DNA from: Patescibacteria group bacterium
GTDB lineage: Bacteria; Patescibacteriota; Microgenomatia; 2-02-FULL-39-11
Assembly (NCBI GenBank): GCA_023379265.1
Contig: JAMCUI010000009.1
Location: forward strand, 167,802 to 231,801
Direction of reading: 5' to 3'
Length of the DNA stretch: 64,000 nucleotides
The notes beneath the pieces were generated by a model that worked only from the letters and a program-made list of their open reading frames with translations, was not told the origin of the DNA and made no database searches. The translations under genes were made by a program, and so were the position numbers. Below, one piece after another: positions 2,249 through 58,491 of this stretch. The stretch's first letter is position 1. Each line of letters begins with the position of its first letter.

Positions 2249-2710
2249 ATGAGAATACCGTATATATTGTTTACATCAAGTGGACTGGAAAAGATAAAAA
2301 AGGAAAAGGAAGAACTTCTTCTTAGGCGACCGACGGCTGTGGAAAACCTTCGTATTGCCCGGGAAATGGGAGATCTGTCGGAAAACGGGGCTTACAAGGC
2401 TGCACGCGCAGAATTATCTTCTCTAGACTCAAGATTGAGGCATCTAAATTATTTGCTATGTGTTGGTAGAGTTCAGACTGCACCTATAGTGAAAGGAAGG
2501 ATAGGCATTGGTTCAAAGGTCAAACTATCTGATGGAAAAAAGGAAATGGAATATGAGATTGTCGGCAGTTTTGAATCAGATCCATCCCAAGGTAGAATTT
2601 CCCATATTTCACCTTTGGGGAAAAGTCTGATGGGAAAAGGACAGGGGGAAAATGTAACCATGCAAACTCCGGATAGTGTTGTTAACTATAAAGTATTACA
2701 GATCTTGTAG
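2249..2710 (+). CDS. greA: transcription elongation factor GreA (paralog 1)
   Basis: N-terminal coiled-coil LTxxGLEKIKKEKEEL..RRP plus GDLSENGAYKAAR (acidic tip residues D/E conserved), and a C-terminal FKBP-like domain ending ISxxSPLGKSLMGK. The stop codon overlaps the 3' end of the tRNA. Confidence 0.8.
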   Translation: MRIPYILFTSSGLEKIKKEKEELLLRRPTAVENLRIAREMGDLSENGAYKAARAELSSLDSRLRHLNYLLCVGRVQTAPIVKGRIGIGSKVKLSDGKKEMEYEIVGSFESDPSQGRISHISPLGKSLMGKGQGENVTMQTPDSVVNYKVLQIL

Positions 2711-2781
2711 CGCGTACCGGATTCGAACCGGTGATTTGCTGGTTGAGAACCAGCCGTCCTAGGCCTCTAGACGAACGCGCC
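2708..2781 (-). tRNA. tRNA-Glu (anticodon CUC)
   Basis: The reverse complement reads GGCGCGT-TC-GTCTAGAGGCCTAGGAC-G-GCTGG-TTCTCAA-CCAGC-AAAT-CACCGG-TTCGAAT-CCGGT-ACGCGCT-A. It has a 7-bp acceptor stem (G1-U72 wobble), a GTCTAGAGGCC D-arm typical of tRNA-Glu, a T-loop TTCGAAT, and anticodon loop TT-CTC-AA. Confidence 0.75.
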
Positions 2782-3212: not shown

Positions 3213-3677
3213 ATGGATAAAAATCAAAAAGTAGTTCTGACGAGAGAAGGTCTTTCTGAGCTGAAAAAAGAATACGACGAACTCGTAAACGTCAAAAGGC
3301 CTGATCTTGTAGCAAGGCTTGCCACAGCCCGCGGTCAGGGAGATCTATCCGAAAACAGTGAATATGCCGCTGCACGTCAGGATTTGGCCTTTATTGATGG
3401 CCGCATTTCCGAACTTGAAGCGGTTATTGCTGAGGCAAAAGTAGTTGCCAGCCATCCTAAGAGCAAGATAGATGTTGGTTGTAAAGTGACTTTACATGTT
3501 AATGGCAAGAAGGAAGCATTTTTGATAGTCGGAGAATGGGAAGCAGATCCGGCACAGAAAAAAATCTCACATTCTTCACCTTTGGGCAAAGCCCTTTTGG
3601 GCAAAAAGGTAGGAGAAATGGTGGAAGTGGAAGCGCCTGTGGGTAAGTTGAAATACAAAATATTAAACATTGAATAA
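3213..3677 (+). CDS. greA: transcription elongation factor GreA (paralog 2)
   Basis: VVLTREGLSELKKEYDELVNVKRPDLVARLATARGQGDLSENSEYAAARQ. Full-length 154 aa with a GreA C-terminal domain. Confidence 0.85.
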   Translation: MDKNQKVVLTREGLSELKKEYDELVNVKRPDLVARLATARGQGDLSENSEYAAARQDLAFIDGRISELEAVIAEAKVVASHPKSKIDVGCKVTLHVNGKKEAFLIVGEWEADPAQKKISHSSPLGKALLGKKVGEMVEVEAPVGKLKYKILNIE

Positions 3678-3776: not shown

Positions 3777-5993
3777 ATGCCGACAATTGACGATTTACGA
3801 CAAATCAGGATAGACAAACTGGAAAAGCTCAGGAAAATGGGGATAGATCCGTATCCGGCCAAAGTAGAAAGAGGGGAAAGTTTGGCTATTGCACGCGATA
3901 GGCTTGAAAAGCCGGTAAAAGTCATAGGTAGAATTGTGGCCATGCGTGGACATGGCGGGCTGATTTTTGCAGATATCGTTGACGAAAGCGGGAAAATTCA
4001 AGTAGCCTGTAAGGAAGATCAATTGGAGGAAAAAGCCTTTGAGCTGCTGCCCCTTCTAGATATAGGCGATTTTATTGCTGTCCAGGGGAACGTGGGAAAA
4101 ACTGTAGCAGGAGAGGTTACTGTTTTTGCTGATAGATTGCAGATTATTACTAAATCTCTAAACCCGTTGCCTGATAGGTGGTACGGTCTTAAAGACATTG
4201 AAGAGCGTTACCGCAAGCGTTATGTGGACATGCTTTTGAACCGGGAGGTAAAAGATCGGCTGACAAAGCGAAGCCAGGTAATTGGAGCGATGAGGGAATT
4301 TCTTATAAAAAGAGGTTTTATTGAGGTTGAAACTCCCACATTGCAGCCTATTTATGGTGGAGGGTTTGCCAGGCCTTTTGTCACACATCACAACGTTTTG
4401 GATACTGATTTTTATCTTCGTATTTCTGATGAGATGTACTTAAAAAGGCTTATCGTAGGAGGTTTTGAGAAGGTTTTTGAAATTACAAAGGTTTTCCGCA
4501 ACGAAGGAATCGATCACGACCATAATCCGGAATTTACCATGTTTGAGGCACAGATTGCTTATGAAGATTACAGTTTTGGGATGGATATTACAGAGGAAAT
4601 TATTGAATACACTGCCAAAAAAATCCTAGGTAAAACCGCTTTTTCCTATCAGGGTACGGCAATGGAGGTGGCGCGTCCCTGGCAAAGATACAAACTTACT
4701 GAAGCAATTAGTCGTTTTACCGGTTTTGATCCGATGAAATGGCAGACATTGAGTGAAGCCCGTGAGGCTGTAAGACAAATGGATATTCCGGAAGATAAGC
4801 TTTCTCTTATGAAACAGGTGAGAACTTTGGGAGAAATGATAGCCTTTGCTTTTGAACACGCAGTGGAGAAAAAACTTATGCAGCCCACAATTATTTATGA
4901 TTTTCCAATTGAGGTTTCTCCACTTGCAAAAAAATGCGACGATCCCCGGTTTACCCAACGGTTTGAAGTGTTTGCATTTGGTTCTGAATTGGGAAATAAC
5001 TATACAGAACTCAATGACCCTTTGGATCTCTTAAAAAGATTTATAGAAGAGAAAAAAAGGGAAGCGGCAGGTTTTGCTGAAGCCCAACAGACAGATTACG
5101 ATTATATTGAGGCTATAGAGCACGGGTTTCCTCCAACGTGCGGTTTAGGTATTGGTATTGATCGATTAGTGATGCTTTTGACTGACGCCAAAAACATAAA
5201 AGAAGTAATACCTTTTCCGACACTGCGTCCACAGCAGCCAAGCGGACACGAAAAAAAGGTTGAAGCGCAGGATAGTCAGGTTAAGATAGATAATGTCAAT
5301 ATTATTTCCAAACCTGATTATTTCAGCATTTCAGCTGATTTGGGGAAAGCATTTCCTTCATTGTCTGTTGGTATTGCTCTTATTAAAGGTGTAAATATAA
5401 AAAAAAGCGATCCGGCACTTGAACTTGAGAAAGAAAATTTCCTGGAACTCTTAACGGGATTGACTAATGACGTGATTAGCGGTTATAAGGAAGTATTAAG
5501 CTATAGGAAGCTCTATAAGGCTATGGGTGTCGATTGGCATTCCCGCCGTCCTTCTCCTGAAGCGCTTTTGCGCCGTGTATCCCAGGGGAAAGGACTTTAT
5601 ACAGTAAATACTTGTGTTGACGCTTATAACTTGGTTGTAATGAAGAACAGGGTCTCGGTTGGCGCTTTTGACGCAAAAAACGTACACTTTCCTACCGTAT
5701 TGCGTTTTGCTGCAGGGGGAGATGAGATACTTCTTTTAGGAGATAAGGAGCCAACAAAATATACTGTTTGGGAGTTAGCCTATTATGACAAGTTGGGCGG
5801 GTTTAATATAGATTTCAATTATCGTGATGCACAAAGGACTATGGTGACAGAGGAAACAAAAGACATATGGATAAATGTTGATGGTATATTTGATATAATA
5901 CCTTCTCAAGTTGAAGAAAGCCTTAAGTTATCTGTAAATTTAATAAGGAAATACTGCGGCGGCGATGTCGAATTTATGGGTGTCGTAGTATAG
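3777..5993 (+). CDS. lysS: lysyl-tRNA synthetase (class II) fused to a C-terminal PheT-type B3/4 domain
   Basis: The N-terminal ~500 aa carry the anticodon-binding OB fold and class II motifs (FRNEGIDHDHNPEFTMFEA; GFPPTCGLGIGIDRLVMLL). Residues ~520-738 (VNTCVDAYNLVVMKNRVSVGAFDAKNV...VLRFAAGGDEILLLGDKEP...) match the B3/4 domain of Phe-tRNA synthetase beta. Confidence 0.85.
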   Translation: MPTIDDLRQIRIDKLEKLRKMGIDPYPAKVERGESLAIARDRLEKPVKVIGRIVAMRGHGGLIFADIVDESGKIQVACKEDQLEEKAFELLPLLDIGDFIAVQGNVGKTVAGEVTVFADRLQIITKSLNPLPDRWYGLKDIEERYRKRYVDMLLNREVKDRLTKRSQVIGAMREFLIKRGFIEVETPTLQPIYGGGFARPFVTHHNVLDTDFYLRISDEMYLKRLIVGGFEKVFEITKVFRNEGIDHDHNPEFTMFEAQIAYEDYSFGMDITEEIIEYTAKKILGKTAFSYQGTAMEVARPWQRYKLTEAISRFTGFDPMKWQTLSEAREAVRQMDIPEDKLSLMKQVRTLGEMIAFAFEHAVEKKLMQPTIIYDFPIEVSPLAKKCDDPRFTQRFEVFAFGSELGNNYTELNDPLDLLKRFIEEKKREAAGFAEAQQTDYDYIEAIEHGFPPTCGLGIGIDRLVMLLTDAKNIKEVIPFPTLRPQQPSGHEKKVEAQDSQVKIDNVNIISKPDYFSISADLGKAFPSLSVGIALIKGVNIKKSDPALELEKENFLELLTGLTNDVISGYKEVLSYRKLYKAMGVDWHSRRPSPEALLRRVSQGKGLYTVNTCVDAYNLVVMKNRVSVGAFDAKNVHFPTVLRFAAGGDEILLLGDKEPTKYTVWELAYYDKLGGFNIDFNYRDAQRTMVTEETKDIWINVDGIFDIIPSQVEESLKLSVNLIRKYCGGDVEFMGVVV

Positions 5994-6002
5994 TGACAAA
6001 TT

Positions 6003-6566
6003 ATGAATATTGAAGAAGCCAGAAAACTATTACATCTTCATATGCAAAATACCAATCTTCGTAGGCACTGTTATTCGGTGGCTGCTGTCATGAGAGCATT
6101 GGCTTGCCATTTTAATGAAGATGAGGACGTGTGGGAAGTGGTAGGTCTTTTACATGATGGGGATTATGAAGAGGTAAAAAAAGACCCTTCGCAACATACA
6201 CTTCTGATGCATAAATGGCTTGTTGAGGCAGGAGAGAAGGATGAAAGGATATTTTCTGCTATCCTTTCCCATAATTTTGTCCATACCGGAAAAAATCCGC
6301 CCAAAAATAAATTAGAATGGTCCCTTTACTGTTGTGATGAGTTGACAGGACTTATTGTAGCTGTTGCATTGGTCCGTCCTGACAAAAAACTATCCTCAGT
6401 GACGGTTGAATCAGTTCAGAAAAAGTGGGGGAAAAGCGAGTTTGCCGCTGGTGTTGATCGTAACCAGATAGCAAAATGTGAGGAAATATTGGGTATAAAG
6501 TTGCCTGAATTTATCGGAATTGCCCTTTCTTCCATGCAGTCAATTTCCTCAGAGCTGGGGTTGTAG
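6003..6566 (+). CDS. HD-domain phosphohydrolase
   Basis: H...(RRHCYSVAAVM) and LLHDGDY HD motif. 187 aa. Confidence 0.6.
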   Translation: MNIEEARKLLHLHMQNTNLRRHCYSVAAVMRALACHFNEDEDVWEVVGLLHDGDYEEVKKDPSQHTLLMHKWLVEAGEKDERIFSAILSHNFVHTGKNPPKNKLEWSLYCCDELTGLIVAVALVRPDKKLSSVTVESVQKKWGKSEFAAGVDRNQIAKCEEILGIKLPEFIGIALSSMQSISSELGL

Positions 6567-6612
6567 CCAGAAGTTATTTTAATTTAAGGTTTCTGCTGTT
6601 AGAAAGCTGCTC

Positions 6613-6705
6613 GTAATGTAAATTTACTTGATCGCAAGGGTGGTAGATCTTAATATGAAAGTTGGAGTAAGAGTTCCGTATGCGATCTTCGAAAATTTAC
6701 AATTA
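6613..6705 (+). repeat. copy A of a recurrent intergenic element (core GGAgTAAGaGTtCcTATgTGCGATCTT), bounded by inverted arms gtaatgtaaatt / aatttaca
   Basis: Seen in sequence. It shares the gtaatgtaaatt 5' block and a ~30-nt core with copy B (58241..58385); the same core recurs at 20867..20896. Confidence 0.4.
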
Positions 6706-6777
6706 CTTCGCATCTTCTTGATCGTTTAGGGTTGCTCATTCGATCAAAGATTTTCAGATTATATACTCATGTGACAT

Positions 6778-6806
6778 TTGAGCTTTGAGCTTTGAAATTT
6801 TATAAT
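6778..6806 (+). promoter_or_regulatory. candidate sigma70 promoter for secA (TTGAGC, 17-nt spacer, TATAAT)
   Basis: -35 at 6778-6783 and a perfect -10 TATAAT at 6801-6806, which would give a near-leaderless secA (ATG at 6816). Direct repeat gagctttga x2. Confidence 0.35.
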
Positions 6807-6815
6807 TAGATACCT

Positions 6816-9497
6816 ATGTTGAAATTTCTATCCAAATTTCTGGATGCCAATGAGAGGGAACTCACCAAAATACGTACTGTAGTTGATAAAATCAACTCCC
6901 AAGAGGAAACGATTAGGAGATTACCCGACAATAAATTCTCAGCCAAGACGGCGGAGTTTAAGGAGAGGCTTAGCCGCGGAGAAAATCTTGACGATCTTTT
7001 GCCAGAAGCATTTGCCTTGGTGCGTGAGGCTGCCAAAAGAAGGATAAGTGAAAGGCACTTTGATGTGCAGCTGATTGCTGCTATAGTGCTGCACCGCGGG
7101 GCTGTTGCCGAGCAAAAAACTGGAGAAGGAAAAACACTTTCCGCCATTCAGGCGTTATACTTGAATGCTTTAAGTGGAAGAGGAGTACACCTTGTGACAG
7201 TCAACGACTATTTAGCCAGAAGGGACGCTGGCTGGATGGGACCAATATTTGCCATGTTGGGGATGTCGGTGTCGGCAATCATTGGTGAACAGTCTTTTAT
7301 TTTTGACCCGCAATATACAGACAAATCAGCCGTTGACTGGAGGCTAGGAAACCTTCGTCCCATATCGCGCAAAGAAGCATATCTAGCAGACGTCACCTAT
7401 GGTATAAACAGCGAGTTCGGTTTTGACTATCTACGCGATAATATGATTTCTGAGGCCTCCCAGATGGTGCAGCGTGGCTTCCACTATGCCATTGTGGATG
7501 AAGTTGACTCAGTCTTAATTGATGAGGCTAGGACTCCTCATATTATTTCCGCTCCCGATACTGAACCCACCCAGAAATACTACGAGTATGCCAAGATGAT
7601 AGACAAACTCAATAAGGAAACTGACTTTGAAATAGATGAAAAATTAAGGACTGCCCATCTGACCGAACATGGAGTGTTGAAGGTAGAAAAAATGATGGGA
7701 GTGGATAATCTTTATGAGAAAGATTTTGCTTCAGTCCATCATATTGAGGCGGCTTTGAAAGCAAGGACTCTATTTTTGCGGGATAAGGATTATGTGGTAA
7801 AGGATAATCAGGTAATTATAGTTGATGAGTTTACAGGCAGGCTTCTTGTTGGAAGGCGTTTCTCCGAAGGGTTGCATCAGGCCATAGAGGCAAAAGAAGG
7901 GGTACCTATACAGCAGGAGTCGAGGACTCTGGCAACAGTATCTTTACAGAATTATTTTAGAATGTATGAGAAATTGGCGGGAATGACTGGGACCGCAGCT
8001 ACAGAAGCAGAGGAATTTCACAAGATATACAAACTGGATGTCGTTATTATCCCTACCAACAGACCTATGGTAAGGATAGACCATCCAGATGCTGTTTATA
8101 AAACAACGAGGGCCAAGCTAGCGGCAGTTGTAGCAGATATCGAAGATTGTCACAAAAGAGGACAACCGGTCCTTGTAGGTACCACATCGATTGAGAAAAA
8201 CGAGATACTTTCAGAATTCCTTCGTCGCAAAGGCATACCTCATGAAGTGCTTAACGCAAAAAACCATGTGAGTGAGGCGACTATCATTTCAAATGCTGGT
8301 CGAGTTGAAGCTGTAACCGTTGCAACGAATATGGCTGGACGCGGAGTAGATATTATACTTGGCGGTCAGCCTCCTAGTGATAAGGAACTGTCAGAATTGG
8401 GTAAAAAGGGATATGACAAGCTGAAAGAGGAATGGAAGAAAAATCATGATAAGGTCTTAAAACTGGGTGGACTTCATGTTATAGGGACTGAAAGACATGA
8501 ATCAAGAAGAATTGATAATCAACTTCGGGGTCGATCCGGCCGCCAGGGAGATCCGGGATCCAGCCGCTTTTTTGTCGCTTTGGATGATGAGATTATGCGT
8601 CTTTTTGGTGGAGACCAGGTAGCAAAGCTAATGACAGTCTTTAAGCTTCCAGAAGATGTACCTCTTGAGCATGCAATGGTGAGTCGGGCTATAGAGCAGG
8701 CCCAAGTGAAGGTGGAAGGATTTCATTTTGACAGCAGGAAACATCTTGTCGAGTATGATGACGTTTTAAATAAGCAAAGAGAAATTATATATAAACTCAG
8801 ACGCCAGATTGTCGTAGGGCAAAATCTGAAAGAGATGATGCAGAAAAAACTTTCCGAACAAATAAGGACTTTAGTAAATTTGTACTCTGCGGATAATGCA
8901 GTAAATCAGGGCGATAAGGAAAAAATATTAAAAGAATTTGTTTCCATTGTACCTTTTGATCCCAACTCTGAGAAACAGATTCTAGTACAACTGGGAGAGC
9001 GTAAAACTCCGCAGGAGATTGAGGAATTTCTGGTAAAAGTGGTGGGCGATGTCTATGAGCAGAGAGAAAAGACATTGGGAAGCGAGATTATGCGCCAAAT
9101 TGAGAAGTGGGCAGGGTTGTCGGTAGTGGACAACATGTGGATGGATCATCTTGACGCAATTGATGATTTGCGAGAAGGGATAGGGCTTCGCGGCTATGGA
9201 CAGCTTGATCCGCTTGTCGAATATAAAAATGAGGCTTATTCCATGTTTGAACGGCTTGTTTTTTCAGTCGATTATGAGATTACTCATAGGATTTTTAAGA
9301 TTCAGGTTCAACTTGCCCCAGACCAGATGGTGGCTCTCCAAAAGCAGCAACAAACCTCAATCCAAAAAGAGGCCCAAAAACGCTCTCAATCCATTACCCA
9401 TAGCACACAATCCAAAAATAGACTGGGAAGAAATGATCCGTGCTGGTGTGGCAGCGGAAAAAAATGGAAGAAATGTCATTATCCTCAGGCAGGATAA
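6816..9497 (+). CDS. secA: preprotein translocase ATPase SecA
   Basis: Walker A AEQKTGEGKTL, DEAD-like DEVDSVLIDEARTP, and a C-terminal zinc-binding CWCGSGKKWKKCH. 893 aa. Confidence 0.95.
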   Translation: MLKFLSKFLDANERELTKIRTVVDKINSQEETIRRLPDNKFSAKTAEFKERLSRGENLDDLLPEAFALVREAAKRRISERHFDVQLIAAIVLHRGAVAEQKTGEGKTLSAIQALYLNALSGRGVHLVTVNDYLARRDAGWMGPIFAMLGMSVSAIIGEQSFIFDPQYTDKSAVDWRLGNLRPISRKEAYLADVTYGINSEFGFDYLRDNMISEASQMVQRGFHYAIVDEVDSVLIDEARTPHIISAPDTEPTQKYYEYAKMIDKLNKETDFEIDEKLRTAHLTEHGVLKVEKMMGVDNLYEKDFASVHHIEAALKARTLFLRDKDYVVKDNQVIIVDEFTGRLLVGRRFSEGLHQAIEAKEGVPIQQESRTLATVSLQNYFRMYEKLAGMTGTAATEAEEFHKIYKLDVVIIPTNRPMVRIDHPDAVYKTTRAKLAAVVADIEDCHKRGQPVLVGTTSIEKNEILSEFLRRKGIPHEVLNAKNHVSEATIISNAGRVEAVTVATNMAGRGVDIILGGQPPSDKELSELGKKGYDKLKEEWKKNHDKVLKLGGLHVIGTERHESRRIDNQLRGRSGRQGDPGSSRFFVALDDEIMRLFGGDQVAKLMTVFKLPEDVPLEHAMVSRAIEQAQVKVEGFHFDSRKHLVEYDDVLNKQREIIYKLRRQIVVGQNLKEMMQKKLSEQIRTLVNLYSADNAVNQGDKEKILKEFVSIVPFDPNSEKQILVQLGERKTPQEIEEFLVKVVGDVYEQREKTLGSEIMRQIEKWAGLSVVDNMWMDHLDAIDDLREGIGLRGYGQLDPLVEYKNEAYSMFERLVFSVDYEITHRIFKIQVQLAPDQMVALQKQQQTSIQKEAQKRSQSITHSTQSKNRLGRNDPCWCGSGKKWKKCHYPQAG

Positions 9498-9525
9498 ATA
9501 AAAGATTTTCCCCAAATCGTCATTC

Positions 9526-9554
9526 TTGCGGACTTTTGGCAATTCATTTACACT
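9526..9554 (+). promoter_or_regulatory. candidate promoter of the atp operon (TTGCGG, 17-nt spacer, TACACT)
   Basis: Hexamers with a 17-nt spacer, ~20 nt upstream of the ATG at 9574. Confidence 0.3.
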
Positions 9555-9573
9555 AAATTCAGGCAATATTTAT

Positions 9574-9801
9574 ATGCGCTATGAATTTAGGTTGTGGTAT
9601 GCTATTTCTTTTGCCTTACAACTGGGTTTTTTGATTGTTGTTCCTTTAGTAGGTTTCCTTTTTTTAGGTAAATGGCTGGATGATATTTTCCATACGGCAC
9701 CATTATTACTTATTGCTGGGATTGTCGCTGGAATAACAACGAGTATTTTTGATGTATATCATCAGCTTGAGATTTTGACAAAAAACCATGATAAATATTA
9801 G
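9574..9801 (+). CDS. small membrane protein, AtpZ/AtpI-like (ATP synthase operon leader gene)
   Basis: Two TM helices (AISFALQLGFLIVVPLVGFLFLG; LLLIAGIVAGITTSIF) immediately upstream of atpB. Internal ATG chosen as start (MRYEF) rather than the longer track ORF. Confidence 0.45.
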   Translation: MRYEFRLWYAISFALQLGFLIVVPLVGFLFLGKWLDDIFHTAPLLLIAGIVAGITTSIFDVYHQLEILTKNHDKY

Positions 9802-10519
9802 TCTGCAACCGGAATATATATTGGGGATTGGAGGTATTTATTTCTCCAATACTTTTTTGACTTCATTTGTGGTTAGTCTGATATTGATTGTTTTCTCATT
9901 TATTTTCTACCGCAACAGAAATAGAAAAATTCTACCTCTTTCTATACTGAAAATTACCATCTATGAGCTTATGAGATTGACTGATAGGGTGACTGGAGAT
10001 AGAAAAATGACAAAGACTATACTTCCAGTAATTTGTACGTTCTTTATATATATTGTTACAGCGAACCTGATTGCGCTCCTGCCGGGTTTTTTGGGGTCAT
10101 TTTATATCTATTCTGGAGGACAGAAGATTGCACTTTTACGCTCTCCCAACAGCGACGTAAATACAACATTTGCACTGGCAATATTTTCCGTTTTGGCCAC
10201 TCAATATTTTTCCTTTCAAAGACTTGGTACAAAAAAATATATAAGCCGGTTCTTAAATATCGCTTCTCCTCTATCATTATTATTGGGTTTTTTTGAGATA
10301 TTGAGTGAAGCGGCTAAAGTACTCTCTTTTTCCTTCAGGCTTTTCGGCAATATATTTGCGGGAGAAATCCTGCTTCTTGTTATAGCATTTCTAGTGCCTT
10401 ATATCATTCCCATACCATTTATGTTTATGGAGATATTTGTCGGCATAATCCAGGCGTTTATTTTTGCCGTTTTGACACTGACATTTATTAAAACTTCCAC
10501 GATTACAACAGAAATATAG
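9788..10519 (+). CDS. atpB: F0 ATP synthase subunit a
   Basis: RLFGNIFAGEILL essential-Arg motif and 5 TM helices. Confidence 0.9.
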   Translation: MINISLQPEYILGIGGIYFSNTFLTSFVVSLILIVFSFIFYRNRNRKILPLSILKITIYELMRLTDRVTGDRKMTKTILPVICTFFIYIVTANLIALLPGFLGSFYIYSGGQKIALLRSPNSDVNTTFALAIFSVLATQYFSFQRLGTKKYISRFLNIASPLSLLLGFFEILSEAAKVLSFSFRLFGNIFAGEILLLVIAFLVPYIIPIPFMFMEIFVGIIQAFIFAVLTLTFIKTSTITTEI

Positions 10520-20526: not shown

Positions 20527-20866
20527 AAAATTGGTAGTTAGCGGTTGATGGTCAATTATCCTCTTTTCTTGTTCTGCCCGGAACGGGATGGAGTAAAAGG
20601 TTTCCTCCCCTCCGACAGGCAAGAGGATATTTTTGTAAGAGTTTCCCGGCGCAGAAGGGATTATTCTTACAAATAGAGAGAAATTGTAAAGATTTCGAAC
20701 TGTCTGTAAGAGCAGTATTAACAATTAAATAGAGATTAAATCCAGAATGGAGGGAAATTGATCGTGTGTAATGTGTGATGAGCATAGCCCACCACAATAA
20801 TTTCTTTTCATCTTGGGTTTAATTTATCTCGCCGAAGCTTTAGCGTAGGCGGAACCTAAGTCAATC

Positions 20867-20896
20867 TGGAAGATAAGCAGTCTATTGCGATTGCAG
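20867..20896 (+). repeat. copy C of the recurrent intergenic core motif (GGAaGATAAGcAGTCTATtGCGATtGCAG)
   Basis: Aligns to cores at 6664-6692 and 58344-58372. Confidence 0.35.
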
Positions 20897-21464
20897 ACTC
20901 AGACAGATTGAAGAGTTGGAAGTTTTAGTTTTTGGCTTAGTTCAAACAGCAACTAATCACCAACAGCTAATAACCGATAACTATTCCGATATTTTATCGG
21001 AATTGCACTTTAAAAACCAGAAACGCAATAGGGAGTTTCTGTCCCGAGTTTTACGAAGGATAGAATTACTCTCAATTGTCCCGAGAGAAATCGAGGGACA
21101 ATAAAAAATTGGTTGTTTTCAATTGACAGGCTCAGTTCTCAGGGGGCGACCCTTTGATGCCGGAAATTTGCGAATAATTGTTATGAGTAATGGGTTCAGT
21201 TTTCAAACACACAACACACCACGCGTAACACAAAACATATTATCCGCAGTTTTCCGGTATCTTGGGGTAGAAATATAGTCAATTCGATTGGGCTAGGAGG
21301 CTAAAAAAGAAGCCTGATCACAGAAAACAGCATCGCAGTCATTACCCTGAGATTGTCGAATCTGAACCTCTACGCCGGATAACGAGGTAGACGAGTTGAA
21401 GTTTAGCATGTTTCCAAAGACCTAAGGGAATTTGGGATAATCAGAACACCTTTGGAGGTGAACC

Positions 21465-22205
21465 ATGGGTACCATCGGTACCATTCTCGTTACGTCCGTT
21501 TTGTGCTTGGTCGGTCTCGCCGTGCTGGGCGTCGCGTTCTTGGTGGGCGCATTCACGGCGAAGAAGCAAGGTGAAGAAGAAAGTGTGCCGACCTCGCGGC
21601 GTCTCGGACGCGGCTTTTCGTTTGCGTTGTGGACCGGTATGGCGATGCTCATCATTGGCGGACTGTGCATGTTCTCTATCGCGGCTGTGTCGGTGGCGTC
21701 TCAGTTTGCGTCGAACCCGCCTGCACTAGTCGCGCCCGCGAACCCGCCCGTCAATCCTGCGCCCGTCAACCCGGCGCCCGCGAACCCGCCCGTCAATCCT
21801 GCGCCCGTCAACCCGGCGCCCGTCGCGCCCGTCAATCCGCCCGCGAACACTGGGGCGTCTGATCCTTGGGGACTCTCCACCATGTCGGTGGCTGATGCCC
21901 AGCAATGGCTCTCGAAGAACATCGGCGGCTCCGCCGACAAGTGGACGCCGCGCAACGACGAACACACGATGTGGGGCTACTGGGACCAAGATCACAAGGT
22001 GACGTTTCGTCACCCGGGAAACAACTCGATGCTCACGTATTGGAACGGGTTTCCCGAACCGCAAAATGCGCGCGGCTGTTGGGTGCAAGTGCCCAAGAAA
22101 AGCGACCGCTGGGACGGTACGACGCGCACGGTGCAATGTCCGACCGCTGGGGCTACGTTTGAAGCAGATGGTGTGGGTTTCCACCCCGTCGCGCCGAACA
22201 ACTAG
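21465..22205 (+). CDS. hypothetical membrane protein encoded in a GC-rich island (2 TM, Pro/Asn-rich NPAPVNPxP repeats, C-terminal Trp-rich domain)
   Basis: This ORF runs through the GC-rich island; the minus-strand ORFs there are Arg-rich antisense artefacts. Codon usage is GC3-rich, unlike the neighbouring genes. Confidence 0.5.
   Translation: MGTIGTILVTSVLCLVGLAVLGVAFLVGAFTAKKQGEEESVPTSRRLGRGFSFALWTGMAMLIIGGLCMFSIAAVSVASQFASNPPALVAPANPPVNPAPVNPAPANPPVNPAPVNPAPVAPVNPPANTGASDPWGLSTMSVADAQQWLSKNIGGSADKWTPRNDEHTMWGYWDQDHKVTFRHPGNNSMLTYWNGFPEPQNARGCWVQVPKKSDRWDGTTRTVQCPTAGATFEADGVGFHPVAPNN
21738..21821 (+). repeat. perfect 42-bp tandem duplication inside the CDS (encodes ANPPVNPAPVNPAP x2)
   Basis: gcgaacccgcccgtcaatcctgcgcccgtcaacccggcgccc occurs twice back to back, and a partial third unit follows. 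Confidence 0.9.
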
Positions 22206-23859: not shown

Positions 23860-25347
23860 ATGTCTGCGAAAATTCCCTGGTTGATTCTTGGCGCATCGAT
23901 TTTGATTTTAGGATTCTATTTTCTTTTTTTTGGGAAAATACAGATAGCTGGTGACATAGTGGAATACTACGGAATGACAGTGTCGATTTTGAATCACGGG
24001 GACGTTTCATTGCGAAATAGCGATAAGACGGATATTGAAAAATATTTGCCTGCAGCTTACTTTTCCGACCCCCAATATTATATGGTCGGGGCCAATCAAG
24101 TAAGATATCCGGTCCATTTCCCTTTTTATGCGTATCTTCTCATTCCATCAAGAATAATCCTTTCATTAATGGGAGCAAATCCGATGTTATCATTTCCATT
24201 GACAAATATTTTAATATTGGCATCAGTACTAATTTACGCCTTTAGAAAGTATATCAAAGAACCGGATAAAAGACTTTTTTTGTTGTTTCTTGTGTATTTC
24301 TCCCCATTAATTTTTTTCCTTGGTTGGCCGGGCCCGGAAATTTATTACACAGGATTGATTTTTATTAGTATATTGGCTTTCATTTCAGGTGAATATTTTC
24401 TTTCCGCGTTTTTCTCCGCTCTCGCTTCATGGCAGAGCCAGCCGCTAATCGTGGTTTCCTTTATAACGGTCATTTATATGGTGATCGATACTCTTGTTAA
24501 ATTTAAGAAGAATAGAGTAGCAGAGAAAAACTCCAACAATTATTTATTGGTTATTAAATCATTATCAATATTGTTGCTGATGTTTATTCCCTACGTATTT
24601 AGTTATTTCCAATTTGGACTTTTGACTCCGTGGACAAATATTCGCAATGGCTGGACGGAAATAAACGGATTTGGTTTACAGAATATCAGCCTGAAAAAAC
24701 TTTTTGAACAGTTTTTCGATTTGAATATGGGACTTTTTTGGTATGCGCCGTTTACTCTTGTGATCGGATTTTATTATTTGATTAAAAGGATTATTGTTGA
24801 CAATAAAGCCGTATTTCTAAGCGCGATCTATCTGGTAACCGCCTTTTTTTATCAGACTAATCCTGCGTGGAATTATGGTACTGCAGGTTACGGCCCTACA
24901 AGACATATTGTTTACATTCTTCCCTTATTTATAGTTCTTGCTATTGATTTTCTTCATGAGAAAAAACTGAGTATTATTACTTCTATCATATTTTTTATCC
25001 TGTTGTGTCTGCAAACTATATCCATGAATATGAACGGGTGGGTAAATCCGGATTTCAGAAATTCGCTCAGGAATAATTACTACGCAATCTATATTTTGGA
25101 CAATTTTCCTTCCTTATATAATCCAACCCCAGAGATATTTGTTGATAGGACTAATCAGACTGATCTGGATCACCCGACATCCGGGTTTTATAAATACAAA
25201 GGGTATTGTACAAAAGCATATGTTTTATCGGACGAACTTAATAATCTGGAAAATCAGTGCGGTTATATTCCAACTGAACAAAAAAAATCGATTATCGCTG
25301 GGTTGAAAACGTTAAATCCTTATCAAGGAATCTATGTCAATTATTAA
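23860..25347 (+). CDS. polytopic integral membrane protein (possible GT-C-like / polymerase-like)
   Basis: More than 10 TM helices, no soluble domain. Assignment from context only. Confidence 0.5.
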   Translation: MSAKIPWLILGASILILGFYFLFFGKIQIAGDIVEYYGMTVSILNHGDVSLRNSDKTDIEKYLPAAYFSDPQYYMVGANQVRYPVHFPFYAYLLIPSRIILSLMGANPMLSFPLTNILILASVLIYAFRKYIKEPDKRLFLLFLVYFSPLIFFLGWPGPEIYYTGLIFISILAFISGEYFLSAFFSALASWQSQPLIVVSFITVIYMVIDTLVKFKKNRVAEKNSNNYLLVIKSLSILLLMFIPYVFSYFQFGLLTPWTNIRNGWTEINGFGLQNISLKKLFEQFFDLNMGLFWYAPFTLVIGFYYLIKRIIVDNKAVFLSAIYLVTAFFYQTNPAWNYGTAGYGPTRHIVYILPLFIVLAIDFLHEKKLSIITSIIFFILLCLQTISMNMNGWVNPDFRNSLRNNYYAIYILDNFPSLYNPTPEIFVDRTNQTDLDHPTSGFYKYKGYCTKAYVLSDELNNLENQCGYIPTEQKKSIIAGLKTLNPYQGIYVNY

Positions 25348-28300
25348 GAATAAACATTTTTATTATTTATTCTTCCTCATATTAGCTGTTGTTGTCATTT
25401 GTTTTACCAACTATAAGCCGGGAACATGGTTGACTGGTTGGGATAATCTGCATCCTGAGTTTGATTTCCCCATGAATATAAACAGATCGATTTTTGCCGT
25501 CTGGCAGGAATATCAGGGATTGGGCCTTCTTGGCGGGATGGGTCATGCTGCCGACCTGCCAAGACAATTATTATTGTCAATTTTTTCAATAATTATTCCG
25601 GTAAGCTTGTTAAGATATTTTTATCAATATCTGATGCTTATTGTCGGCGTATTGGGAATCTATAAACTTGTAATATTCTTTCTTAGCGATAGATTAAAAG
25701 ATTCGTCAGTAAGAAAGATAGCATTACTCTGCAGTTTATTCTATCTGTTAAATCTGGGAACCATACAGAATTTTTTCTTTCCTTTTGAACCTTTCAGTAC
25801 TTTTTGGGGATTCTTTCCATGGGAGTTATGGGGATTATTTAATTATTTGAATAAACCAAACAAAAAAGCTTTTATATGGTTTGTCTTTATAAATATACTA
25901 GCGATTCCTCAAGCGTACGTGGAAACAATATTTCTAGTATATTTACTTTTTATTTCTATAATATTTCTGATTTATTTCTTCACAAATAAAAGCTTTTTGA
26001 CTTTTAAGAAAATTTTTGTGATCTCCGGAACTATTTTCCTTATTAATTCCTTCTGGATTCTTCCCAATGCTTACTTTATTTTTACCAGTGTTTCAGTAAC
26101 TCAGAATGCCATGAATAATAAAATGAACAATGACAGATTTGTTGAAATGAATCTTAAGAGAGGGCATCCAGGAGATTTGATATATCTGGAAGGATTCAAT
26201 CTGGATACTCTGGATGATACTCAAACTCCCGGAAAGCCTGTTTATATGATGCAGGTATGGAGGGATTATTATTCACTTTTACCGATTAGAATAGAAGGAA
26301 TAATATTTTTCATTCTTACTCTTTTGGGGATTTTGAAGGGGAGGAGGAAAAGTAAATATATTGCCGGAATGTCGATTTTGAGTGTAGTAGTGTTATTAAG
26401 CGATACTCCAATAATTTCAACAATAAATTTTCTATTACGGCAAATTCCACTCATTAACCAGGTAATCCGTAACCCCTTTACTAAATTTATCGTTCCCACA
26501 GCTGTAATCTATGCTGTTCTTTTTGGATTTGGTTTGTCGTTTATTTTTGAACACTTTGAAAAAAAAAGAGAAAGAGCAATAAAAGTAATATTCCTTTTAC
26601 TTACATTAATGGTATTGATATACGGATTACCGGCGTTTACCGGACATCTGTTTTCTGACAGATTGAGGATTAAAATTCCTGATTATTATTTTCAAGTATT
26701 TAATTACTTTAAGACTAAAGATCCCAACGCGAGAATAATGAATCTTCCACAAGATACTTATTGGGGATGGGGTTCCTATAAATGGGGTCTTACTGGTTCA
26801 GGATTTTTATGGTACGGTATTGGACAACCTGTTATGGATAGAGCTTTTGATGTTTGGAGTAATTACCTTGAGCAGTATTATTGGGAGTTAATTTATGATT
26901 TGAGGATGAGAGATCAGAATCTTTTCAATAAAACGGTAAAAAAATACGACATCACTTATGTATTATATGATGAGAGTTATATTCCTTCCGATTACAATAG
27001 CTTAAAATGGATAATTCAGCAGAAAGAGTTGTTGGATAATAATCCGTTATTTACTAAAGTAGCAGATTTCGGCACTGTAAGCATATACAAAATTAACGAT
27101 AATTCTGGCTCCGGTTCGATGAGTCTATTAAATAGTGTTCCACAAACTATAAAATACGAAAATTTCAGTAATACTGATGATTTGTTTAACTCTGTCGGAA
27201 ATTATTATGAAGAGAATAATAAACCGGAACCTGATTATGTTTATCCTTTTGAATCATTATTTACAAATCGATTCCAGAATGAAGTAAAATTTTCGGTTTC
27301 AGACACAGCCAATGATATCAGCTTTACGAAAGAAATACCAAAAGGTAATTATAATTTGAATATTCCCTCTTTAATAAATGATGAAAAAATTTTACCTTTT
27401 GCTATTTACGCGAAGATCGAAGGTGGTAGCTTAATTTTAAGCTTTCAACTGAAAAGTCCGGAAGTGCACGTAGATAATGTGGTAGTTAATAATAATCCGA
27501 TCTCCAAGCAATTTGCAATTCCTATTCCGGTACAATTTAGTGGGAACTATTATTTACTTAGTATAAATAATAGGGACTTTTTAAGCATAGTAAACCCTTC
27601 CGATAATTACGAGTATATTGGTGATGCATATTTAATTAACAGTCTAATTGGTAATTCCGTATCTCTATATTCGGGAAGCAATCCTGCGATTCAGGATTTG
27701 GAACCGAAAAAATTTAACGCCGCAGTTGACTGTAATTCGGGAAAGTCAACCAAGTCCAGCTTGACTGAGGTATCGGGAAACATACTGAAAATATTTGCAC
27801 AAGGTAGTTCTACATGTGTACCATACAGTTCTCCATTGATCAACTTGCCAACCAGAGGATTGGACAGGATAAGTTTTGTTTATAAATCCAAATATGATGA
27901 ATTTCCAAAATTCTGTTTTAGGAATTTATCTTCAGGTAATTGTATAAACCAATCAAATAATAACAAAATAAGCTTTTCCACAAATTATCTCAGGTATAAT
28001 GAGTATTTTGAGGATAAAGGCGGGATAAATAATATAAATACTTTTTCGTTTATTCTTGAGCCGGGGTATGACAAATCTTTGTCTGGAGAAAAAAACATAT
28101 CTTATCAGAATATTGAAGTATTCTCCTACCCTTTTATCGATTCATTTGACTTTGACACAACCTCTTTAAGTCATAATTCTGTAACAGAGTTTAAATTTAA
28201 CATTAATAAAAGTTCCTTAATCGAAGTTAATGTACCTAAAATATCTGGAAGTTATGAGTGGAGTAACCTTATAAACGATAACCAGTATAAAAGGAACCCT

Positions 28301-29203
28301 CAAGAATATAATCCTGTTGAAGGGGATTTCTATATGTCAGAACATATTTATCCGGACAATGATAAAAGTCTACTATTATATTCTAAAAATTATTTGTTAA
28401 ATTATTTGTTTGAACAAAATAATTTACCTTCTGACGTAGGATATTTATTATCAATGAGTACTAAGTTAGTTAACGGGTTTCCGCTAACTCTGAAGACTAC
28501 TACTGTAAAAAACGATACCACTTATGTGTATACTCTTATGTCGAAAAGTACAAGTTTCGACACCTCAAGATATATTTTGCCACCTATTTATCAGTTTGAT
28601 GATGGAATTAGAGTACAATTTACAGATAGCTCTTTCAACCAGATACCATCGGTAAATGAGATAAAAGATATTTCATTAGATCCAATACCTTATAAATACC
28701 TGACGAAAATTAGTTTGACCTCTTCTACCTCAGAAAAGAATAATGAAAATAAAATAGTTCTACCATTCACTAAGGATAATATTTCAGATTATTCTGTTAA
28801 AATTAATTCAAATACAGTAGAAAGAAACACGATCTTAGCTTTTTCACAGAGTTATGATAGCGGTTGGAAAGCATATTCAATAAACGAAGAACAAATATCA
28901 AACAGCAATTTGTTGACAGAATTATTTCCTTTCTGGTTTGGTACAGAACTAAAAGACCATGTGATGGTGAATAACTGGGAAAACGGTTGGAAGCTTGAAC
29001 AACCAACTAACAACAAACAACTAATAAACATAATTGTCGTTTATCTGCCGCAATATCTGGAGTACGTTGGATTTATTCTGTTGGTGATAGGAATATTATC
29101 CGTAATATTTTATCCAGGAGATAAGCAACTGGACGGTAAAAGAGCAGAAAGCCAAGAACAAAGTAGGAATAACCCGGAAATGTCTGACACAAAACTATTG
29201 TAA
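25334..29203 (+). CDS. giant YfhO-like GT-C family membrane protein (1289 aa) with a ~750-aa extracytoplasmic insertion
   Basis: N-terminal GWDNLHPEF...VWQEYQGLGLLGGMGHAADLP parallels the YfhO block GGDLLTQFYFW...FWSPYNFSGMPFLAHP of the neighbouring gene. The C-terminus YDSGWKAY...VNNWENGWK plus a final TM resembles the YfhO C-terminus. Confidence 0.65.
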   Translation: MSIIKNKHFYYLFFLILAVVVICFTNYKPGTWLTGWDNLHPEFDFPMNINRSIFAVWQEYQGLGLLGGMGHAADLPRQLLLSIFSIIIPVSLLRYFYQYLMLIVGVLGIYKLVIFFLSDRLKDSSVRKIALLCSLFYLLNLGTIQNFFFPFEPFSTFWGFFPWELWGLFNYLNKPNKKAFIWFVFINILAIPQAYVETIFLVYLLFISIIFLIYFFTNKSFLTFKKIFVISGTIFLINSFWILPNAYFIFTSVSVTQNAMNNKMNNDRFVEMNLKRGHPGDLIYLEGFNLDTLDDTQTPGKPVYMMQVWRDYYSLLPIRIEGIIFFILTLLGILKGRRKSKYIAGMSILSVVVLLSDTPIISTINFLLRQIPLINQVIRNPFTKFIVPTAVIYAVLFGFGLSFIFEHFEKKRERAIKVIFLLLTLMVLIYGLPAFTGHLFSDRLRIKIPDYYFQVFNYFKTKDPNARIMNLPQDTYWGWGSYKWGLTGSGFLWYGIGQPVMDRAFDVWSNYLEQYYWELIYDLRMRDQNLFNKTVKKYDITYVLYDESYIPSDYNSLKWIIQQKELLDNNPLFTKVADFGTVSIYKINDNSGSGSMSLLNSVPQTIKYENFSNTDDLFNSVGNYYEENNKPEPDYVYPFESLFTNRFQNEVKFSVSDTANDISFTKEIPKGNYNLNIPSLINDEKILPFAIYAKIEGGSLILSFQLKSPEVHVDNVVVNNNPISKQFAIPIPVQFSGNYYLLSINNRDFLSIVNPSDNYEYIGDAYLINSLIGNSVSLYSGSNPAIQDLEPKKFNAAVDCNSGKSTKSSLTEVSGNILKIFAQGSSTCVPYSSPLINLPTRGLDRISFVYKSKYDEFPKFCFRNLSSGNCINQSNNNKISFSTNYLRYNEYFEDKGGINNINTFSFILEPGYDKSLSGEKNISYQNIEVFSYPFIDSFDFDTTSLSHNSVTEFKFNINKSSLIEVNVPKISGSYEWSNLINDNQYKRNPQEYNPVEGDFYMSEHIYPDNDKSLLLYSKNYLLNYLFEQNNLPSDVGYLLSMSTKLVNGFPLTLKTTTVKNDTTYVYTLMSKSTSFDTSRYILPPIYQFDDGIRVQFTDSSFNQIPSVNEIKDISLDPIPYKYLTKISLTSSTSEKNNENKIVLPFTKDNISDYSVKINSNTVERNTILAFSQSYDSGWKAYSINEEQISNSNLLTELFPFWFGTELKDHVMVNNWENGWKLEQPTNNKQLINIIVVYLPQYLEYVGFILLVIGILSVIFYPGDKQLDGKRAESQEQSRNNPEMSDTKLL

Positions 29204-53446: not shown

Positions 53447-54946
53447 TTAACGGATTGGGCCAAATGTCTGTTTTATATCATTTCGAACAAATATTCCGGC
53501 GTACATATCCTGGAAAACTATTTTCCAGCGGCCCTCATTCACAAGTTTGAGCATCTGCTTATATATAGGTTTGGTTGGTGGCATATAGACTTCGTCATAT
53601 TCGGAAGCGTCCACGCTTGCCATATTCTGCTCCAGCGGGTAATAGTGTGCAAAGGCGCTGTAGCCGTGGTCATCTTTCCAGAAAGGCATGCGTCCGTCCA
53701 TTGACGGTTTTATATTGGGGTAATTCCAGATGAGCCATCCTCCCCAGTTGTAAAAAGTCAGCAGTTTTCCGGCGGGTTTGTGTTCCACAAGATATTGGGC
53801 CGACTTGGGTGAGCAGAATATATATACATTGCAGTAAAAATCCCAAGACATGGATCTTAAGAGCACCGACTGGTTGTGAATAAATATGGAATAAAAGTAA
53901 TAAGCAGCCAAAAGGAATGTAGCAAAGATTGCCGATATTTTTTTGTTTGGCGGTTCTATGGCTTTGACAAAAACAGCGACTACAGGGATGGAGATAAGAA
54001 ACATCGGCCAGGAGTATCTCCTCATCCAGAATGAAAATACAAAAAGTAGAATCATGAGGCAGATATAAGGTAAGAGTTTTTTCACCTGTCTCTTTTTGGC
54101 AATTACAATAAGGCTTATAGCAATCAGTATTCCCCAATAGACAAGGCGCCACCAGAGGGTCGAACCAGGATCAAAAGGAGTCCACTCGACAATATATTTT
54201 TGCAGAGGATTGTCAAAATGGTGTGTCGCTTCCAGGTAGACGCGCCAGGTGAAGGGATTGACGAAAGTTGCGGCAAAGGATAGGAAAAAAGCGGAAACAA
54301 GTATTCTCCACTCATGGAAATCAGTCTTTATCCTTAACCGGTATTTATCATAAAGAAGACGCAAAGTATATATCCCTATCCAGCCGGCAAAAACTCCCAG
54401 CCCTAGTATGAATTCCCCATGGAGGTTGCTCCAGACAAGAAACATGGGGATTATGCCAAAAAGCCATTTGTACTTTTTTTCTTGAAATTTGGAGATGAAA
54501 AAGTATACCAGTCCTATAAAGCCCAGAGTCATCAGCTGTGAGCGGAAAGAGATGATAGTAAGCGGTTCCTCTAGGAATAAAAGGATGGGAAAAAGTACTG
54601 CCTGTTGCCAAAAATTCAGCTTTGCCGCCTTTGCAAAAAAATACATAGTTGCGACTACTACCAGAGCCCCCAGGACGCTCAATCCGAAAAAGCCGAAATG
54701 GTGGTATGTAAAATAGGTGATGGCGTCAGTCCCCCATGAGTGGTTGACCCAGTCGTAATTTACCATCTCCGATGAGAAAAGATTTTTGGTCAATATGGCA
54801 TGGTGCTGGAAAAAGTACTGTCCGTACCGCAGGTGCCATCCCAGGTCCGAGTCGGCCGGGTTGTAAAGTGACGCCACAAAGACGACAACCAGTGGGAACA
54901 GTCCGACGAAATATAAGGTAAAAAGTTGTTTTACCCAGTTTTTCAT
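53447..54946 (-). CDS. polytopic membrane protein, GT-C-like (tentative)
   Basis: About 12 TM helices. First loop NPADSDLGWHLRYG. No soluble domain. Confidence 0.5.
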   Translation of the reverse strand: MKNWVKQLFTLYFVGLFPLVVVFVASLYNPADSDLGWHLRYGQYFFQHHAILTKNLFSSEMVNYDWVNHSWGTDAITYFTYHHFGFFGLSVLGALVVVATMYFFAKAAKLNFWQQAVLFPILLFLEEPLTIISFRSQLMTLGFIGLVYFFISKFQEKKYKWLFGIIPMFLVWSNLHGEFILGLGVFAGWIGIYTLRLLYDKYRLRIKTDFHEWRILVSAFFLSFAATFVNPFTWRVYLEATHHFDNPLQKYIVEWTPFDPGSTLWWRLVYWGILIAISLIVIAKKRQVKKLLPYICLMILLFVFSFWMRRYSWPMFLISIPVVAVFVKAIEPPNKKISAIFATFLLAAYYFYSIFIHNQSVLLRSMSWDFYCNVYIFCSPKSAQYLVEHKPAGKLLTFYNWGGWLIWNYPNIKPSMDGRMPFWKDDHGYSAFAHYYPLEQNMASVDASEYDEVYMPPTKPIYKQMLKLVNEGRWKIVFQDMYAGIFVRNDIKQTFGPIR

Positions 54947-56013: not shown

Positions 56014-56559
56014 GTGTTGATTATGAAATATTTGAAAAAGATAGTCAAAGTTATATTGTCCATATTTACATTTATTGCAATTCCAGTAATCCTTTTTGTA
56101 TTAATCACCTCTCACTTTTCCGTATTTGGCGGAATTCGGTCATTTGACGTACTCACCGGCAGCATGGAACCTACTATACACGTAGGTAGCATGATTTTTA
56201 CAAGACCTGTATCAACGTATAAAGTCGGAGATATCATCACTTTCAAACGGGGAGACATCTCTGTGACACATAGAATTCATGCGTTGAAGAACGGGCAGTA
56301 TCAGACTAAAGGTGATGCCAATATTTCACCTGATCCGCAGTTAGTCTCCTCATTCCAGATTATAGGAAAGGATATTTATATCTTTCCCAATGTTGGTAAA
56401 TTAACCAACTTTATAAAGTCTTTTCCCGGGTTTATAAGTTTAATTGTAGTTCCTATCCTTTTATTTGTCGGATTTGAATTAAATACTATCAAGGAGGAAT
56501 ATAAGAAAGTTATAAGAAAAGATATTCTGGAAGAGATGAATGCGTATAGAAAAGTATGA
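56014..56559 (+). CDS. sipW: signal peptidase I, archaeal/ER type (SipW)
   Basis: N-terminal TM, VLTGSMEPTI (SMEP catalytic Ser box), VTHRIHAL (His), GDAN, and a C-terminal TM. 181 aa. Confidence 0.75.
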   Translation: MLIMKYLKKIVKVILSIFTFIAIPVILFVLITSHFSVFGGIRSFDVLTGSMEPTIHVGSMIFTRPVSTYKVGDIITFKRGDISVTHRIHALKNGQYQTKGDANISPDPQLVSSFQIIGKDIYIFPNVGKLTNFIKSFPGFISLIVVPILLFVGFELNTIKEEYKKVIRKDILEEMNAYRKV

Positions 56560-57137: not shown

Positions 57138-57207
57138 TATTTATCACGTTTGTGTTTGCGTATGATAAGTTACTGACATTTATTTTTATTTTGTGTAAAT
57201 TGGTGAA

Positions 57208-58203: not shown

Positions 58204-58240
58204 ATCGCATTCTTTGCTTGTCCTGCCAGTAAAACCGCCA

Positions 58241-58385
58241 GTAATGTAAATTCCATAACCAGCAAGGTTGGAAAATTTTGTTGGTGTGTTGACCAAAAAG
58301 TAATATTTGTATTTCACTTATCGCATTTCAGCCAAAAAGCTGGAATAAGCGTCCTATATGCGATCTTAGGGAATTTACACATACT
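58241..58385 (+). repeat. copy B of the recurrent intergenic element (gtaatgtaaattcc ... GGAaTAAGcGTcCTATATGCGATCTT ... ggaatttaca)
   Basis: The 10-bp terminal inverted arms tgtaaattcc/ggaatttaca compensate for the arms of copy A tgtaaattt/aaatttaca. Confidence 0.4.
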
Positions 58386-58491
58386 TTGCAGTTTTATATG
58401 TAAGTTTTTAGTGATTACAAACCACCGACTACCCATGACAAACTAATCTTTGTCTTGAACTGAAGGTAAAATTCTGCAAAAATGGTAATTA

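Follow-up and report, generated by a model that had tools for sequence, protein, structure and literature searches.

The 64,000-nucleotide stretch of DNA that was analyzed (the window) carries two complete copies of an imperfect palindromic repeat, located in the spacers upstream of secA and of a CAP-domain gene. On balance, and with a little better than even confidence, we read this repeat as a non-autonomous palindromic element of the MITE/ERIC/REPIN kind rather than as a regulator devoted to secA or to the CAP-domain gene. It represents a new family of a known class, with no sequence relation to named elements. Because neither a target duplication nor a parent element was found, the repeat was filed as a new family and not as a proven MITE. 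The full form is about 165 nt long, and the family comprises full, internally deleted, and truncated members.

Copy A is complete but of a short form, with an internal deletion, and occupies positions 6601 to 6717 of the plus strand (117 nt) between an HD-domain gene, which stops at 6566, and secA, whose ATG is at 6816. Copy B is complete and full length (positions 58229 to 58395, plus strand, 167 nt) and is flanked by an LTD-domain gene that stops at 58203 and by the CAP-domain gene, whose ATG is at 58492. Both copies were matched by nhmmer and by a covariance model, the latter with 108.7 bits (E = 8.6e-25) for copy A and 164.5 bits (E = 8.7e-39) for copy B. They share an exact 12-mer (GTAATGTAAATT, starting at 6613 in copy A and at 58241 in copy B), an exact 11-mer (TATGCGATCTT), and a 55-nt ungapped block of 78% identity (6658 to 6712 in copy A and 58336 to 58390 in copy B), which is the longest non-coding dispersed repeat of the window. 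The identity between the two copies is about 70 to 78%. A single-query nhmmer search with copy A returned copy B as the sole match in the window (E = 7.8e-6). In addition, a profile built from three copies of the MAG CAZFNL01 alone detected copy B with E = 1.4e-25 and copy A with E = 3.6e-19, and the E values were 1.9e-15 and 8.1e-8, respectively, when the 23-nt scan pattern was masked. On sequence comparison, copies A and B are true homologues with a similarity beyond chance.

The earlier note on this DNA had counted three copies in the window. Copies A and B stand, but the third, copy C (20867 to 20896), gave no match at E ≤ 10 with nhmmer or with the covariance model run with its filters off, and the degenerate core consensus given for the family had no ungapped match there even with three mismatches allowed. 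Copy C was therefore rejected as a chance resemblance, and the window count is two. The site falls within the largest gene-free gap of this very compact window (20798 to 21464), which comprises 667 nt without a convincing ORF and has no Rfam match better than E = 0.03. The extents first given for copies A and B (6613 to 6705 and 58241 to 58385) contain the sequences as described, but the true limits are wider. Measured from the full end of the element, the distance to the downstream start codon is 100 nt for copy A (6716 to 6816) and 96 nt for copy B (58396 to 58492), in place of the approximately 130 nt claimed previously.

A search for the motif in related genomes had been proposed, and an exact-pattern scan of 185,579 species genomes yielded three more clear copies, each on its own contig of MAG CAZFNL01 (L003, L004, and L005). 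All three are complete and were supported by the pattern scan, the alignment, and the profile. A match to Mucilaginibacter in the same scan was attributed to chance. Two truncated relics, in which only the 5' part is kept, were found on other contigs of the window organism: one at positions 6182 to 6260 of L014, in the rpsU-ybeY spacer (E = 3.8e-6), and one at positions 2873 to 2912 of L023, with convergent genes on either side (E = 6.5e-5). The copy counts come from about 118 kb of sequence for the window organism and 24 kb for the MAG. With two complete copies and two relics in the 118 kb or so of the window organism, the copy number looks low. The sister strain GCA_023487465.1 (99.6% identity) has copy A in identical form, and about 100 kb of sequence from relatives at 73 to 78% protein identity yielded no copy. 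A 19-base 3' pattern gave three matches in JGI metagenome contigs, all of which were rejected as chance matches in coding or unrelated DNA lacking the 5' module. Two scans of viral contigs gave zero matches, and a distant blastn search against plasmid and phage records gave no match.

Its SecA homologues identify the window organism as a Gottesmanbacteria-like Patescibacterium. The amino acid identity between MAG CAZFNL01 and the window organism was 88% for AhcY and 94% for DDAH. The MAG (isolate SRP271791_co1_7) is labelled "uncultured Gammaproteobacteria," and for its AhcY and DDAH-like proteins, the nearest counterparts are those of Patescibacteria/Gottesmanbacteria; the label is probably wrong. 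The known range of the repeat is a narrow Gottesmanbacteria-like clade of Patescibacteria.

An alignment of the five complete copies showed three size classes: copies B, L003, and L004 are 165 to 169 nt long, L005 is 129 nt, and copy A is 117 nt. L005 and copy A carry nested internal deletions. A conserved 5' module (AAAAAGCTGCTCG-TAGTGTAAATTTCC-TAGCTCGCAAGGATGG) and a conserved 3' module (TTGGAnTAAG...CCGTATGCGATCTTCGGAAATTTACACATACTTCGCATCTTT) flank a central region that is present in copies B, L003, and L004, shorter in L005, and nearly gone in copy A. Every complete copy was predicted to fold into a single unbranched, imperfect, rod-like hairpin with three stems: the outer one has arms of about 23 to 26 nt, the middle one is GATCGCA/TGCGATC, and the inner one contains G-U pairs. 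An apical hairpin is present in addition in the long forms. In copy A, the 5' arm of the outer stem (AAAGCTGCTCGTAATGTAAATTT, 6603 to 6625) pairs with the 3' arm (AAATTTACAATTACTTCGCATCTT, 6693 to 6716) in the MFE fold and the consensus structure. The 5' strand of its middle stem (GATCGCA, 6630 to 6636) is the perfect complement of TGCGATC at 6681 to 6687, which is held within the invariant block TATGCGATCTT (6679 to 6689). In copy B, the 5' arm (AAAACCGCCAGTAATGTAAATTCC, 58231 to 58254) was predicted to pair with the 3' arm (GGAATTTACACATACTTTGCAGTTTT, 58370 to 58395), and the invariant block matches exactly at 58357 to 58367. The central segment of copy B that is missing in copy A (58280 to 58329) is homologous to the centers of the L003 and L004 copies according to the alignment and the fold, and it contains TTATCGCAT, which is able to pair with ATGCGAT. 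All of these parts are given for the plus strand. Another segment of copy B, GCAAGG, pairs locally with TTTTGT and not in the middle stem, an alternative that is impossible in copy A.

The imperfect terminal inverted arms of 23 to 26 nt pair in 5/5 copies, and the L003 copy includes a 12-nt perfect inverted repeat. The inverted 5' and 3' blocks described previously for copies A and B were confirmed, and folding the two copies, as had been suggested, gave a rod-like hairpin for both. Fold z-scores across the copies ranged from -1.7 to -4.4, with -4.35 for the RNA fold of copy B. In the consensus structure, 88% of the cells were paired, compared with 28 to 52% when the partners were slid. Because the halves of the element are mutual inverted repeats, either strand can form the long rod hairpin, as single-stranded DNA or as RNA, and both strands folded about equally well. 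The difference between copies A and B at ttcc/ggaa had been interpreted as covariation in a closing stem. One true double change, from U-A to C-G in copy B (columns 25/145), was found; it is the one clear compensatory change of the outer stem, and its U-to-C half lies in the 5' arm of copy B. However, covariation overall was not significant, since double changes occurred in 3 of 39 pairs among the five sequences and 182 of 500 shuffles reached the same number. On the plus strand, 18 G-U pairs were counted against 12 A-C mismatches.

A search of the whole window with Rfam 15 at the gathering threshold gave a tRNA-Glu as the sole match, and nothing relevant appeared over copies A and B at E ≤ 10. 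The element is non-coding, as its sole ATG-initiated frame (ATG CGA TCT...) ends after 3 to 24 codons and is unconserved. A small peptide was accordingly rejected: the conserved ATGCGA frame stops after 3 codons in copy B, and the ATG-TAA of the 5' block is GTG-TAA or absent elsewhere.

Every complete copy is intergenic and occupies an AT-rich spacer. The five complete copies and the two relics are all in sense with adjacent transcription (7/7 members). Four of the five complete copies and one relic begin 0 to 45 nt past the stop codon of a co-oriented gene, and the L004 copy sits between divergently transcribed genes. The genes downstream (secA, the CAP-domain gene, ahcY, and genes for a DUF1761 protein, a GT2 glycosyltransferase, and ybeY) are unrelated, thereby indicating no functional theme. 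A strong sigma-70-like promoter (TTGAGC-17-TATAAT, 10/12 matches) was predicted at 6778 to 6806, between copy A and secA. Similarly, a promoter-like TTGTCA-18-TATACT lies 3' of the element and ahead of the DUF1761 gene of the MAG, and it is kept as TTGATA-18-TATACT in the element-free spacer of the window organism. Since the element lies upstream of the predicted promoter in both the secA and the DUF1761 spacers, it is likelier to belong to the 3' UTR of the upstream gene than to a 5' leader. A scan for sigma-70 promoters inside the element gave no consistent site, with counts not above those of shuffled sequences; only L004 gave TTTACA-17-TATTTT. A terminator scan at the element ends found no canonical terminator, and its sole match was internal to copy B (58259 to 58271), a hairpin (CCAGCAAGGTTGG) followed by AAAATTTTGT. 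The predicted promoter at 6778 to 6806 ends 10 nt short of the secA ATG, and no Shine-Dalgarno sequence is visible; hence, the secA transcript may have no leader or only a very short one. The ahcY start in the MAG is likewise without a Shine-Dalgarno sequence.

Three orthologous spacers were tested (secA, ahcY, and DDAH-DUF1761), and in no case did both of the genomes compared carry the element. The secA spacer is 249 nt long and contains the element in the window, and it consists of a few bases between the HD-domain stop and the secA ATG in L011; the relatives L009 and L012 are also without the element at this locus. At the ahcY locus, the gene order PfkB-HAD-ahcY is common to the MAG and the window organism. 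In the MAG (L005), the element lies 44 nt before the ahcY ATG, and in the window organism, the 81-nt spacer (L014) contains no copy detectable by nhmmer. A decayed remnant recognized in that spacer by eye (TAAATTT..GAGAGTAAG) was unsupported by nhmmer and was rejected. The DDAH-DUF1761 spacer holds a 169-nt element in the MAG (L003) and none in the window organism (L023), and its promoter-proximal 75 nt are still alignable between the filled and the empty spacers. As a separate observation, the AhcY protein of the window organism (L014, 10001 to 11395) is 464 aa long, compared with 437 aa in the MAG. Its extra segment (ERGSNSKGNHDVKDLDLAS...) directly follows the conserved N-terminal KLAPEGKKKIE motif and might have arisen by insertion or by duplication of a motif.

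Several other features of the window were recorded. Upstream of copy A, positions 3777 to 6566 hold a gene that resembles aspartyl-tRNA synthetase (738 aa, B3_4 domain present) and, after it, the separate HD-domain gene of 187 aa, and L011 has a single 694-aa gene (7860 to 9944) with tRNA-synt_2 and a weak HD match, which suggests a gene split or fusion between the window organism and L011. Tandem paralogues of the GreA/GreB family lie at 2249 to 2710 and 3213 to 3677; the tRNA-Glu(CTC) gene between them (2707 to 2781, minus strand) shares a few bases with the end of the first GreA ORF. Upstream of copy B, a cluster at 56014 to 58203 contains genes for a signal peptidase of the S26 type and for secreted proteins rich in proline and threonine, one with a lamin-tail domain, and a separate protein with tandem PAPVNP-type repeats is encoded at 21465 to 22205. 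The coding repeats of these two regions make up most of the direct-repeat families of the window. Three long ORFs, at 25334 to 29203 (1289 aa), 23860 to 25347 (495 aa), and 53447 to 54946 (499 aa), had no Pfam match at 1e-5.

Among the candidates that had been proposed for this repeat, the MITE-like element was best supported, by the presence and absence at orthologous sites, the deletion variants, the relics, and the palindrome, although no target-site duplication or transposase was found. The copies are shorter than about 300 bp (117 to 169 nt), non-coding, dispersed, and bounded by terminal inverted repeats, and they show insertion polymorphism, as in MITEs. A target-site duplication was sought, and no shared direct repeat was seen at the fuzzy, A/T-rich ends; the filled and empty spacers were too diverged to give an exact junction. 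No transposase is encoded in the window, and no transposase with ends matching the element was found in the DNA examined. No RAYT gene was seen in the approximately 250 kb examined, and the Pfam matches listed included no Y1_Tnp domain. Beside the L003 copy, an IS1595-family transposase gene (DDE_Tnp_IS1595 and zinc ribbon; L003 4983 to 5876, plus strand) lies directly upstream of the DDAH-like gene, and an AI-2E transporter gene takes its syntenic place in the window organism. No inverted ends were found for this IS1595 element, and the derivation of the repeat from it was rejected, as its flanks are unrelated to the repeat. An integron attC site was also rejected by reading of the sequence, since the ends are without RYYYAAC / GTTRRRY and the neighbors are housekeeping genes.

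The element would spread now, or would have spread in the past, by means of a transposase that is encoded at another site and acts in trans. Where it lies downstream of a co-oriented gene, it would be transcribed within the 3' UTR of that gene, and its stable hairpin could influence termination, processing, or mRNA stability there. Dedicated regulation of secA or of the CAP-domain gene would not be among its functions. The copies within a genome are old; with copies A and B just about 70 to 78% identical, a recent burst is not indicated. The uniform sense orientation of the members argues against a classical MITE, as classical MITEs show no such uniformity relative to adjacent transcription. 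The blocks TATGCGATCTT and GTAATGTAAATT, unchanged between the otherwise diverged copies A and B, argue against a purely selfish element. Furthermore, the few compensatory changes keep the stems paired, which indicates selection on the hairpin itself. A role at the RNA level is plausible in view of the uniform sense orientation, the conserved blocks, the compensatory changes, and the age of the copies, all of which suit a purely selfish element less well.

These same observations bear on an alternative in which the repeat is a structured RNA family, either small RNA genes that are paralogues of one another or a cis-acting module that is portable, and the plus-strand rod hairpin, including its conserved loops and bulges, is functional, for instance, as a protein-binding or RNase III-processed RNA. 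We regard this as a minority possibility. Sense orientation in all seven members and perfectly kept blocks within otherwise diverged copies speak for such a family, as does an identity of about 78 to 82% outside the scan pattern at different loci of two species. The three double changes preserve pairing, and the excess of G-U pairs over A-C mismatches is found on the plus strand. CGGAAAUUUAC can pair with the 5' arm or, alternatively, with a local UUCCG, and both candidate partners of position 145 are changed to C in copy B. Most copies have a -10-like TAnAAA box immediately on their 5' side, and TTGCAA-16-TATAGA is found ahead of the L004 copy. However, the covariation does not exceed that of shuffled sequences, the fold is about equally good on both strands, Rfam has no match, and neither a -35 box nor a terminator is consistent among the copies. 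The orthologous spacers of close relatives are without the element, the truncated relics point to decay, and the neighboring genes are unrelated. The unrelated genes, the orthologous absences, the intervening predicted promoters, and the insignificant covariation likewise weaken the gene-specific leader or small structured ncRNA put forward in the earlier note. A more elaborate account would make the repeat a new class of rod-shaped structured RNA in the Gottesmanbacteria-like lineage, transcribed in sense only and itself mobile, a portable module that rewires the 5' or 3' ends of unrelated genes in the streamlined genome of an episymbiont; its conserved internal loops (e.g., UAUGCGAUCUU) would bind protein or direct RNase III-type processing, and CGGAAAUUUAC would have its two alternative pairings. 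Taken jointly, these propositions are doubtful.

The positions of the copies also permit a reading as an intergenic terminator or insulator, possibly bidirectional, in which an A-tract, a long stem, and a U-tract separate one transcript from the next promoter. The placement of four of five complete copies and one relic 0 to 45 nt past a co-oriented stop, upstream of the predicted promoter of the next gene, is consistent with it, and in all copies the stem has an A-rich run on its 5' side and a U-rich one on its 3' side (AAAAAGC...GCAUCUUU). Nevertheless, we consider it unlikely, because no canonical terminator was found at the ends, with only the internal hairpin in copy B, and because the stem is AT-rich, interrupted, and 115 to 170 nt long, unlike known intrinsic terminators. 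Moreover, a terminator is not needed between the divergent genes around the L004 copy, and the orthologous spacers work without the element. A family of operators for a DNA-binding regulator that reads the inverted half-sites TGTAAATTT / AAATTTACA is very improbable. The half-sites are conserved and inverted, but their spacing varies from 65 to 117 nt, the palindrome spans the entire element and not the half-sites alone, the neighboring genes are unrelated, and the orthologous promoters are without the element. The transcription factor operator suggested earlier is thus not favored. The non-autonomous palindromic repeat remains our preferred reading.

Next, the repeat was compared with known systems. 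ERIC/IRU is an intergenic imperfect palindrome of about 127 nt that forms a stem-loop over its whole length, occurs in size variants due to indels, lies in transcribed spacers, and has a patchy distribution; no transposase is known for it, nor for the present repeat. Its architecture is the closest to that of the present repeat, which is also an intergenic imperfect palindrome with indel variants and unrelated neighbors and is patchy between related genomes. The two differ in that the present repeat has no sequence similarity to ERIC/IRU, a lower copy number as seen here, and all copies in sense, and it occurs in Patescibacteria, whereas ERIC/IRU occurs in Enterobacteria/Vibrio. Correia (NEMIS, in Neisseria) and RUP (in Streptococcus pneumoniae) are classical bacterial MITEs whose terminal inverted repeats have sharp limits and whose insertion duplicates a TA target, and both are co-transcribed with neighboring genes. 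The present repeat resembles them in its 100- to 160-nt class, non-coding nature, inverted ends, hairpins, and presence or absence between strains. The short form of Correia has lost about 50 nt internally, and copy A stands in a similar relation to copy B. In contrast to Correia and RUP, with their sharp ends and TA duplication, complementarity here extends along the whole element.

REP units are 20 to 40 nt long, have a conserved GTAG head, usually occur in tens to hundreds of copies, and are mobilized by RAYT (TnpA_REP). Like REP/REPIN sequences, the copies described here are hairpin-forming intergenic repeats with preserved pairing, kept across species at shifting positions. REP/REPIN sequences have no target duplication, and none was found here; in contrast, their units are longer and are not accompanied by a RAYT gene in the roughly 250 kb examined. 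Cis-regulatory leaders and riboswitches share with the repeat the sense orientation, the spacer position upstream of a gene, and the combination of conserved blocks and stems, but the repeat differs from them in its unrelated genes, unconserved orthologous sites, predicted promoters downstream, and absence of an Rfam match.

The genomes of Patescibacteria (candidate phyla radiation) are very small and streamlined and are regarded as poor in mobile elements. A full-text search of the literature returned no account of MITE-like repeats from Patescibacteria or the candidate phyla radiation. In annotation, the element should not be named a secA leader or a riboswitch. A hairpin repeat that shifts between species with proteins about 90% identical points to ongoing or recent turnover of intergenic DNA in these genomes, and it provides a marker for strain typing. 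If transcribed, the element would offer a simple model of how 3'-UTR hairpins shape expression in uncultivable organisms.
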